Shown piece after piece: positions 18,301 to 21,300 of a DNA stretch of 22,901 nucleotides. The DNA is taken from contig CAXMUH010000066.1 in NCBI GenBank assembly GCA_964196565.1, forward strand, positions 1 to 22,901. The letters are read 5' to 3'. Positions within the stretch are counted from its first letter, which is position 1, and every line of letters starts with the position of its first letter. Made by a program: the position numbers. Source of the stretch: an uncultured Legionellaceae bacterium. Lineage in GTDB: Bacteria > Pseudomonadota > Gammaproteobacteria > Coxiellales > Coxiellaceae.

Positions 18301-21300
18301 TAATCGACCATTGTTATGATGATGATGGTAATGTTATTATTTCATTTAAACGTACATTTTTGGTTTATAAAAAGGGCCAAGGTCCTTACGCAGCGGCAGG
18401 GTATTAAATGAATGCACACCGGCTCTGGTTACTCTCGTTTTTGTTTCTCTAGTTTTTTTACTACACGTGCGCGTTTTAATGATGACAGGTGGTCTAGGAA
18501 AACTTTTCCGTTGAGATGATCGAGTTCATGCTGAATGCATTTTGCCATAAAGTCCTCGGCTTCGAATTCTATTTTTTTACCATGACGATCAAAAGCGCGC
18601 ACTTTAATTTTTTCTGCGCGTTTAACTTTTGCAAATACAGTGGCACCAGGTCCGACTGACATGCAGCCTTCTTCTTCATTGGTTTCGCCTGATCGTTCGA
18701 TAATTTCTGCATTGATTAAACATAACGGTTTATTTTTTTCAGGTGAGAAATCAATAACGGTGATATGCGGAGGATTTTCAATATCCAATTGGCAGGCGGC
18801 AAGGGCAGCGCAGTTATCTGAGGCATAATGGGTTTCAAACATATCGTCAATGATTTTTTGCAACGCGTCATCGAAGTTTTCAACTTTGCGAGCAATTGTT
18901 TTTAAGCGTGTGTCTGGGTATTGTAAAATTCGAATTTTTGCCATTGTTCTTATTCTTTATTACCAAAATATGGTGCCGAGGAAAGGACTTGAACCTTCAC
19001 GGAGTTGCCTCCACAAGCACCTGAAGCTTGCGTGTCTACCAATTTCACCACCTCGGCGTTGTTGTTCGGAGTTTTTTTAAGTGACGCATATTGGTGGGCA
19101 ATTTTACGCGAAAAATTTCTTCAAATTTGTCATGTACTCGCATGTACACTCCGCATTTTCATCAATTTTTCGCGTAAACTTGCTGCACCAATCTGTGTCC
19201 TCGTATTCCGAGCATCATTTTCTTTAAACTTACCTTTTAGCTGAGCGTCCATGCCGTGTTCATTTGCGGCCAATCTTGAACGAAAAATTTCTTCCAATTT
19301 GTCATGTACTCGCATGTACACTCCGCATTTCCATCAATTTTTCGTTCAACCTTGTCTCGCAACTGAGCGTCCATGCCGTGCTCATTTGCGGCCAATCTTC
19401 ACAGTATCGTCATTTCGACCGAGCGTGGCGAGCAAGCTCGCTACTCATGTCCGGTTACTTAAATCCTCGTTATTTATAATGGCTTAGAGAGGCAATGTCA
19501 ACGGCTCTACAGGCTCCAATCAACTGGTGTGCGCCCATTTTGTTCAAGTAGTGAGTTGGCCTTGGAAAAGTGACGGCAGCCGAGGAAGCCTCGGTGTGCT
19601 GATAGTGGTGAGGGGTGGGGTGCTTTGAGTATTTTGTGTTTGTCTTTGTCTATTAAATGCTCTTTTTTTTGTGCGGCTGACCCCCACAATAAAAAAACGA
19701 TGGTTTGTGGATGCTGGTTTAAACTATCAATCACTCTATCGGTGAGCTCATACCAGCCGATATGGGCATGTGATTGTGGTTTGCCTGCTTCAACAGTCAG
19801 TGATGAATTTAACAGCAGTACGCCTTGCTCTGCCCATTTCTGGAGGCAGCCATGCTTGGGTGGCGTGAGGCCAAGATCAGCGTGTAATTCTTTGTAAATA
19901 TTGCCCAGTGAAGGTGGTGGCTTGATACCGGCTTTGACAGAAAAAGATAAGCCATGCGCTTGCCTTGGTCCATGATAAGGATCTTGACCAAGTATCACTA
20001 CCTTAACGTCATCATAAGGTGTTAGGTTAAGCGCATTAAAAATATTGGCTTTTTCAGGATAAACAATTTTACCTTTGCTGCGCTCATCAATAATAAATTG
20101 CATGATTTTTTTAAAATAGGGCTTTTCTTTTTCTTCGCCCAGTACTGAATTCCAAGTTCCCATCGACATATTTGCTTCTCAAGATTAAGTTAGACTTAAA
20201 TGTTTACGGTAACTGCTTTGCCTAAGCCTAGGTTTTTTAGCATTAGGTGTAGTCTATCAGATTTTGCGCTGTCTACAAGGGGTCCGATTTGCACTCGATA
20301 TAATGTTCGATGATGAGACAAGATAGGCAGGATTTTTACCGGTTCATTGGTGAGGCTGTTAAGGCGTGATTTTAATTCAATGGCATTCTTATGATTGCTA
20401 AATGCGCCGACCTGTAAATAGGTGTGAGTAATTTTAGCATATTGAATTGGATTAAGTTTTGGCTCGTCATTGTCATAGGTGATGGTCTTAACTTCGACGA
20501 AAGCTGTGCCTTGTTTTGCAAATTTTAATTTTTTTGCAGCGGCGTAGGATAAATCAATAATACGATTGTGTGCAAATGGGCCACGATCGTTGATTTTAAC
20601 AATAATCGATCTGCCATTTTCCAAGTTGGTTACGCGCGCCAAGGCTGGAATGGGGATCGTGCGGCTGGCGGCTGTTAATTTATACATGTCATAAACTTCA
20701 CCGCTTGAAGTTAACTGACCTTGAAATTTGGTACCATACCACGAAGCTACGCCGCGTTTGTCGTAGCCGCGGGCGGTGCTAGCAACATGATAGCGTTTGC
20801 CGAAAACCACATAGGAATCTGGATTGCCATAACGGCTTTTTTTTAATGGCCCTGGAATAACTTGGGGAGTATTGCTGGTATAAATATCTTGTGTGGGCGG
20901 CCCATCAGCTTGCAAAGTTGAGCAGCCGCTGATCAAAGCTAAACCAGATAGGCCAGTTACAAAAGAAGCTAAGCGCATAACATTGCATTTCCTGTGTTTA
21001 TTTGCTCCAATATTAGCCACACATAAGACTTATATTGAGCTGAGGGTTATTCTCGGGTAAATTATAGTAGAAAAAATGAGGATGTAAAATTGAAACAACA
21101 AGAATATATATTTGGTTTTCATGCAGTCAATGCATTATTACGTGCTGAGCCTGAGTTAATCACCGAGCTTTATTTGCTCTCAGGGCGAAATGATCAACGT
21201 TGTCGTGATTTAATTGCGTTAGCACAAGAAAAGAATATTCCGATACATAAATCATCGCGCGTGGCTTTAAAAGAATTATTGGGCCTTGACGCGGTACATC

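Follow-up and report, generated by a model that had tools for sequence, protein, structure and literature searches.

Correia elements in Neisseria, and in enterobacteria the enterobacterial repetitive intergenic consensus sequences or intergenic repeat units (ERIC/IRU), are imperfect palindromes of 100-160 bp found in transcribed intergenic regions; within host transcripts they fold into RNA hairpins, which RNase III or RNase E cleaves. Within a tRNA-Leu transcript itself, the 3' external transcribed spacer 3'ETS-leuZ of Escherichia coli is a short 3' spacer that acts as a sponge for small RNAs (sRNAs). [quoted passage not shown] The present analysis concerns an array of palindromic units, A and B, in a stretch of 22,901 nucleotides, hereafter the window, from an uncultured Legionellaceae bacterium (contig CAXMUH010000066.1), where it lies in the spacer between the genes for uracil-DNA glycosylase (ung) and tRNA-Leu(CAG) (19058-19506, minus strand). 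The Ung protein is 69-79% identical to those of C. burnetii and of Coxiellaceae metagenome-assembled genomes (MAGs), so that the source organism is an uncultured member of the Coxiellaceae. The explanation favoured here, at about even confidence, is that the array is a mosaic of palindromic modules resembling MITEs or REPs and their clusters (bacterial interspersed mosaic elements, BIMEs), lodged in the leader of tRNA-Leu, co-transcribed with it and trimmed away.

Read on the minus strand as RNA, the block of about 400 bp can be parsed into two 117-nt hairpins (A1 and A2), an orphan arm (A'), two 37-nt B segments and a small GTAG-tagged hairpin:

19083-19199, minus strand: hairpin A1, 117 nt with 43 base pairs; RNA free energy -47.5 kcal/mol, z -8.0
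19129-19152, minus strand: the 24 nt at the apex of A1, the same sequence as in the A2 core and at positions 4689-4712 of contig L007, from a second genome; 59.2 bits
19202-19240, minus strand: A', a diverged partial copy of one unit A arm, 22/39 identical to the A2 arm
19241-19277, minus strand: unit B copy 1, the A2 outer 3' arm plus a linker (from repeats and fold)
19255-19371, minus strand: hairpin A2 in its 117-nt frame, base-paired from 19260 to 19366; folds as RNA at -37.0 kcal/mol, z -4.4
19301-19324, minus strand: 24-nt apical core of A2, GGAGTGTACATGCGAGTACATGAC; 57.8 bits
19363-19399, minus strand: unit B copy 2, a copy of the outer 3' arm, then a linker, then the start of the A2 outer 5' arm (from repeats and fold)
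19424-19444, minus strand: small GTAG-tagged REP-like hairpin, GTA-GCGAGC-TT-GCTCGC-CACG, with a 6-bp stem and a TT loop (pattern scan; weak)

A repeat search finds unit A as two 93-nt copies (19090-19182 and 19262-19354; 86% identity) and unit B as two copies identical at 36 of 37 positions, at spacings of 172 and 122 bp. The 32-nt core pattern of unit A matches twice in the window against zero times in 100 shuffles, and neither unit occurs again within the window, the shuffles giving no matches. At this level the preliminary description of the locus holds: both copies of A are closed by perfect inverted flanks (TTTACGCGAAAAATT/AATTTTTCGCGTAAA, 15 bp, and TTGAACGAAAAATT/AATTTTTCGTTCAA, 14 bp), the core of A contains CATGTAC-TCG-CATGTAC, and B is duplicated with one mismatch. 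The structure prediction it had suggested for unit A returns the two 117-nt hairpins listed above, of which unit A is the centre. The array is identical across four independent assemblies and is thus not an assembly artefact. The resemblance of A' to the A2 arm is reached by only 2 of 5000 shuffles, and the small hairpin at 19424-19444, which folds no better than shuffles, is the sole hairpin with GTAG and a perfect stem in the window and contig L019 together (31 kb of genome).

The origin of the array is best seen from its surroundings. Upstream lies the one strong promoter match, with 11 of 12 consensus positions:

19496-19501, minus strand: -35 box of the ancestral promoter for tRNA-Leu(CAG), TTGACA, 6 nt past the stop codon of ung (promoter scan; relatives)
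19473-19478, minus strand: -10 box TATAAA, after a 17-nt spacer and 415 nt upstream of the tRNA 5' end (promoter scan; relatives)
19069-19472, minus strand: lineage-specific insertion, boundaries +/- about 10 nt (415-nt gap against 10-13 nt in four relatives)

The program's promoter scan rejects this promoter solely for the A at position 6 of its -10 box, and relative L010 has TATAAAT at the equivalent place relative to its own -35 box. A TTGACA-17-TAnAnT/A promoter is present in L010, C. burnetii (L014), L015 and L016, where the -10 box ends 10-13 nt before tRNA-Leu(CAG); two more relatives (L017 and L018) likewise have short leaders or none. Sequence comparison finds nothing resembling A or B in the tRNA leaders of relatives, and the array is absent from the equivalent locus in every relative examined. 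Because the gap between -10 box and tRNA is 415 nt here as against 10-13 nt in relatives, the array is an insertion and does not consist, as had been thought, of reiterated copies of the tRNA upstream region. Judged from sequence, it is some 400 bp of foreign or expanded DNA placed between an ancestral promoter and its tRNA. The same comparison upholds the near-consensus promoter after ung, to which transcription of the array had been attributed, as the natural one for the array. Not supported is a tRNA-proximal promoter made of B-like sequence: positions 19083-19105 belong to A1, as its outer 3' arm, and the next best promoter-like match near the tRNA reaches only 8/12 (TTGCCC-16-TAAAAA). The order of promoter, array and tRNA implies that the whole block would be transcribed as a leader; a scan of the array for terminator-like sites returned none, A1 being trailed by an A-run and A2 by AAGAUUGG.

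A 10-nt inverted repeat with one mismatch, TTTAAGTAAC/GTCACTTAAA (19454-19463 and 19076-19085), brackets nearly the whole insertion. It could mark the ends of one composite element or be due to chance; given its mismatch and the lack of a target duplication, it is not relied on as element ends. A prophage attachment-site remnant was also considered and rejected, as the block lies 5' of the tRNA and not 3'.

The two hairpins differ from each other in an uneven way. When the 43 pairs of the A1 structure are laid on the gapless A1/A2 alignment, 29 are invariant, 6 have changed on both sides and still pair, and 8, chiefly those at the outermost end, no longer pair in A2; with the partner columns slid by 1-3 positions as a control, two-sided changes fall from 6 to zero. 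Three of the six form one contiguous block of 3 nt (alignment columns 25/94, 26/93 and 27/92), which accounts for the three compensated flank positions noticed earlier, and the other three (columns 6/112, 11/107 and 13/105) lie in the outer stem. As DNA, A1 folds at -29 kcal/mol (z -7.1). Mismatches between A1 and A2 number 2 in the inner 64 nt and 26 in the outer 53 nt (Fisher p = 4e-9), and the B copies are almost identical while the adjoining A' has diverged from the A2 arm to the extent listed above; uniform drift after duplication cannot account for such a pattern. Either the centre has been constrained or homogenised while the arms were free to change as long as they paired, or a conserved centre has been placed into different, related palindromic arms. 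The preliminary description had argued from the compensated flanks to selection on a hairpin or cruciform. The first part of that argument stands, as complementarity has been kept by two-sided changes that vanish in the slid controls. The step to selection is weaker, because arm-to-arm templated correction of palindromes is a non-selective route to compensated changes, because half of the changes form a single contiguous block, and because the copies are mosaic.

The centre of the hairpin recurs in a second genome. An exact scan with a 21-nt core was run against one genome per species (185,579 species), JGI metagenomes and a viral collection; the species genomes gave a single foreign match, the metagenomes returned the same contig, and the viral collection gave zero matches. 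By our own arithmetic about 0.3 matches to an exact 21-mer are expected by chance in the species collection, and the extension of this match to 24 nt, together with its location exactly at the tip of a long hairpin, makes chance very unlikely. The hairpin in question (L007:4639-4765) is 127 nt long (-71.9 kcal/mol, z -9.0); a vapB/vapC-like pair ends 17 nt before it, and it is convergent with a WD40 gene. Exactly 24 nt, GGAGTGTACATGCGAGTACATGAC, are common to the apices of A1, A2 and the L007 hairpin, and the L007 arms are no more similar to the A1 arms than shuffled sequence is. The CTP synthase of the MAG that contains L007 and L008 is 80-81% identical to proteins named Coxiellaceae and 72% to that of C. 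burnetii, which makes this MAG Coxiellaceae-like; the G+C content of the two genomes is the same (0.41 and 0.40). Allowing up to 6 substitutions, or using blastn-short or a covariance model of the apex, no new copy appears in 166 kb comprising the window and relatives. A weak look-alike tip (CATGT-TCGCATG) on a hairpin of L016 (5262-5388) was dropped, as it has no score with the apex covariance model. Two Logan contigs of the same species as the window (L005 and L006) stop precisely with the final base of the 24-nt core, as contigs are expected to break when an assembler runs into a repeat.

In all three hairpins the apex consists of a G:C pair, a GA/GA internal loop, a 6-bp stem (GUGUAC/GUACAU) and the loop AUGCGA, while the lower stems are broken by additional 2x2 loops, nearly all of them GA/GA, with one GC/AA in each. 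On the transcribed strand, the mismatches of all three hairpins are purine-purine; in symmetric loops such oppositions number 9 in A1 and 7 in L007, with no pyrimidine-pyrimidine opposition in either; all four wobble pairs of the L007 outer stem are U:G on the favoured strand, on which this hairpin folds at -71.9 kcal/mol against -48.4 kcal/mol on the opposite one. At both loci it is the favoured strand that is transcribed along with the neighbouring genes. A duplex palindrome in decay should show both kinds of mismatch equally, so that a set made up wholly of purine-purine mismatches argues for constraint on a single strand, be it RNA or single-stranded DNA.

Under the favoured explanation, that of a repeat mosaic in the tRNA leader, the tRNA promoter would produce a tRNA-Leu-def transcript (def encoding peptide deformylase) whose 415-nt leader folds into two long hairpins; as no U-tract follows them, these should not terminate transcription. 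RNase P would remove the leader by cleaving at the 5' end of the tRNA, and RNase III or RNase E would probably cut at the hairpins. The invariant 24-nt apex would be recognised by a protein that copies, moves or binds the elements, the arms needing only to pair, and the element, selfish or neutral, would be tolerated by the tRNA. Several features suit such an origin. Besides the insertion relative to four relatives, the strong promoter ahead of the block, the two-sided pair changes, the mosaic divergence and the recurrence of the apex in a second genome, they include the hairpin folds, whose z-scores range from -4.4 to -9.0, and the lack of any match to a known RNA family or gene. Each A unit is a 117-nt inverted repeat, and the block of about 400 bp holds no open reading frame (ORF) with a family match, as fits a MITE (less than about 500 bp, no transposase). 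Long hairpin repeats are moreover common in these genomes, with several each in L008, L010, L012 and L015, canonical GTAG REPs among them.

Other observations weigh against this explanation. By inspection there is no target-site duplication, and no direct repeat flanks A1, A2 or the block as a whole; the 37-nt B copies do flank A2 but are far too long to be one. The A hairpins, with their approximately 43 pairs, lack a GTAG or CGTC tag; only the hairpin at 19424-19444 has, like a REP, such a tag beside a short stem of 6-13 bp with a short loop. The strand bias, which is not expected of a neutral DNA palindrome, suggests selection acting on one strand, as RNA or single-stranded DNA, and conservation is reversed, with an invariant apex and free arms where MITEs and REPs keep their ends or stems. 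The core has only one exact match among the species genomes and JGI metagenomes scanned, and there is no additional copy of the array in about 31 kb of its own genome (the 22.9-kb window and some 8 kb of L019). Transcription and processing, finally, are inferred.

The main competing explanation is a structured RNA that works for the host: a new RNA family with an invariant apical module for binding or processing and a stem whose tandem G.A pairs are kept as structure. In this form the two leader copies would yield sRNAs or control tRNA maturation and def expression, and the L007 copy would act in the vapBC 3' untranslated region (UTR). We consider this possible, if on balance improbable. It accounts readily for an apex identical at 24 of 24 positions on arms without detectable similarity, for the covariation of the A1 and A2 stems, for a strong strand bias that favours the transcribed strand at both loci, and for an array that lies directly behind a near-consensus tRNA promoter. 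However, the instances number three in two genomes, two of them neighbours; the element is absent at the equivalent locus in all relatives examined; its contexts (a tRNA leader and the 3' end of a toxin-antitoxin pair) are unrelated; and fragments (A' and an orphan B) are present in the block, as is expected of decaying repeats. The strand bias fits a single-stranded-DNA transposition intermediate as well. The mobile-repeat and host-RNA explanations are compatible, not exclusive, because repeat-derived sRNAs have already been described in Coxiella.

In a related and more tentative proposal, one that we think unlikely, hairpins A1, A2 and L007 would represent a new module, of structured RNA or single-stranded DNA, in environmental Coxiellaceae, in which an invariant apex serves as a protein-recognition site on a sequence-free stem punctuated every 1-6 bp by tandem purine-purine loops (GA/GA, GC/AA), the two copies behind the tRNA-Leu promoter releasing abundant hairpin RNAs. 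Readings of the UGAUGA/CUGA motifs as a hammerhead, k-turn or C/D box were rejected, as they have no Rfam support and no known partner protein in the group; so was a CsrA sponge, as the GGA motifs sit in internal and not apical loops and the copies in the window lack an ARGGA context.

A third explanation places function in the double-stranded DNA, the array being a set of protein-binding or cruciform sites downstream of the tRNA promoter that act as a roadblock or regulator. The core does contain two 10-bp direct repeats, GTGTACATGC and GAGTACATGA (GTACA-N5-GTACA), one helical turn apart and identical at 8 of 10 positions, a layout that matches the one bound by tandem winged-helix response regulators, and it is invariant across two genomes; the CpxR box, GTAAA-N5-GTAAA, differs from it at one position per half-site. 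A duplex site, however, needs neither complementary arms of 40 bp nor compensatory changes nor strand-biased purine-purine mismatches, and the second instance lies between convergent genes, away from a promoter. A duplex binding array is thus a poor candidate.

Far less probable still is a coding sequence or its remnant. A 61-aa ORF (MRVHDKLEEIF...) with its ATG in the A2 core behind GGAG and its end in the A1 core is called in four assemblies, and every core has GGAG, then 5 nt, then ATG. However, this ORF (63 aa; 61 aa in public calls) has no homologue besides itself among 1.84 billion representative proteins. The five natural ORFs have no Pfam hit, two sub-threshold matches being found only for a spliced composite peptide; the equivalent ATG in L007 opens an ORF of only 5 codons; and the A1/A2 differences are all non-synonymous in the repeated peptide, one stop included. 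The public gene call P0121 (window 19130-19321, minus strand, 61 aa), which starts and ends inside the two repeat cores, is very likely spurious. A simple local tandem duplication whose complementarity is fortuitous and whose structure is not maintained, as the 172- and 122-bp spacings and near-identical B copies might suggest, is effectively refuted by the grossly uneven divergence (p = 4e-9), the six two-sided compensations, the same apex on a hairpin in another genome and fold z-scores down to -8.

The genes on either side of the array, all on the same strand, are as follows:

19507-20169, minus strand: ung, uracil-DNA glycosylase, upstream neighbour (Pfam UDG)
18971-19057, minus strand: tRNA-Leu(CAG), intact (ARAGORN; Rfam tRNA, 53.5 bits)
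18429-18944, minus strand: def, peptide deformylase, 26 nt 3' of the tRNA (Pfam Pep_deformylase)

The adjacency of tRNA-Leu and def is kept in L010 and L016, and def follows the tRNA by 29 nt in C. burnetii (L014); def would be co-transcribed from the tRNA-Leu promoter. The ung/tRNA-Leu/def junction looks, from these sequences, like an insertion hot spot. In C. burnetii, ung and the tRNA are separated by three ORFs of 721, 200 and 151 aa that have no Pfam hit (L014 10692-13862), and in L015 a LysR gene and a 158-aa ORF separate the tRNA from def (10947-12512). In the closest relative, L009 (Ung 79% identical), TTGACA-17-TATATA stands right after ung (2326-2373) and no tRNA start follows in the next 23 nt, where the contig ends; L009 may also have an insertion in this leader. 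The candidate def contigs for L009 (P0133, P0125 and P0135) belong to other organisms, and their leaders are short or truncated. A further contig, L004, departs from the others at about position 2244, within the 3' half of tRNA-Leu, with unrelated sequence beyond; its tRNA half resembles that of L010, and the contig is probably chimeric, joined at the conserved tRNA.

Two other long hairpins, both unrelated in sequence to unit A, occur in the window. One (21862-21952) has near-perfect 33-bp arms (-60 kcal/mol as RNA, z -14) and lies between the convergent ORFs 21090-21857 (plus strand) and 21953-22831 (minus strand); this could be a bidirectional terminator or one more palindromic element. The other (6796-6898; -55 to -58 kcal/mol) has 26-bp arms with an inner 21-bp pair and directly follows ORF 4226-6793 (plus strand), convergent with 6909-7469 (minus strand). 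Other hairpin repeats abound in L008, of the MAG with the second copy of the core (246-420, 6019-6094, 6167-6310 and 6352-6375); one hairpin, 148 nt long and folding at -78 kcal/mol, has GTAG close to its ends, and the motif GCTTCTAAACT[AG]T[AG]T occurs at least four times. Elsewhere in the window, three genes on the plus strand (15093-18407) have Pfam matches to HpcH/HpaI lyase, acetyl-CoA hydrolase/transferase and MaoC/mesaconyl-CoA hydratase, accompanied by a LysR-type gene (14035-14874, minus strand). We take them to be an itaconate-degradation (ripCAB-like) gene set of the kind used by some intracellular pathogens; such a set is noteworthy in a Coxiella relative.

If the array is indeed a repeat mosaic in a tRNA leader, it would show clearly, in a natural setting, repeat hairpins that have come to lie between a tRNA and its promoter, and the cell would have to transcribe and trim about 400 nt of stable structure for what is apparently the only tRNA-Leu(CAG) of the locus, and probably also for def. 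For annotators there is a warning, as the 61-aa gene in public assemblies is almost certainly spurious. Should the combination of apex and purine-purine pattern hold in more genomes, it would amount to a new hairpin recognition module in intracellular bacteria, in a group already known for small RNAs arising from repeat elements.

Only tRNA passes the threshold when Rfam families are compared with the array, a permissive E-value included; the best non-tRNA matches, to generic models of miRNA precursors or C/D boxes, score 13-26 bits where the thresholds are 50-130. Searches of plasmids and phages by blastn give chance matches only (E >= 0.4), and the core sequence was not found printed in the literature searched. 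The likeness to Correia and ERIC/IRU elements lies in hairpin processing of the kind proposed for the array; those families differ in having hundreds of copies, TA duplications and terminal inverted repeats that are conserved, features not shown for the array. With 3'ETS-leuZ the array would share the possibility that a non-tRNA segment of a tRNA-Leu transcript is released and persists as a small RNA, but it is a 415-nt 5' leader of repeat hairpins, without evidence of a target.

The REP/BIME clusters come closer. Like the array, they are intergenic, palindromic, clustered mosaics of modules with linkers, and they are present in Coxiella and its relatives (PMC3733652); canonical GTAG REPs are observed in L010 and L012, one small GTAG-tagged hairpin lies within the array block, and in both cases the hairpin is likely used as a single strand. 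By comparison, REP stems are 6-13 bp long with short loops and it is the stem that is conserved, whereas the array has stems of about 43 bp, untagged A hairpins and a conserved apex. QMITE1 and QMITE2, compared here by description, belong to the same bacterial family and form long, very stable hairpins (reported at -67 to -113 kcal/mol; PMC5896051); the 20.7-kb C. burnetii locus L014 contains no long hairpin. Unlike the QMITEs, the array lacks border direct repeats of 7-11 nt or 2-3 nt and a DUF1658-type peptide, and it is seen as one cluster in about 31 kb of genome where QMITEs are reported to have some 50 dispersed copies per genome (PMC5896051). The size of the block, on the other hand, is close to that of QMITE1 (300-400 bp), and QMITEs and array hairpins alike are intergenic or in 3' UTRs, with some QMITE copies transcribed as the sRNAs CbsR3, CbsR13 and CbsR16 (PMC5896051). 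Given the missing target duplication, the untagged A hairpins and the reversed conservation, the array is assigned to no named family and is filed as an undescribed member of the same general palindromic-repeat kind.

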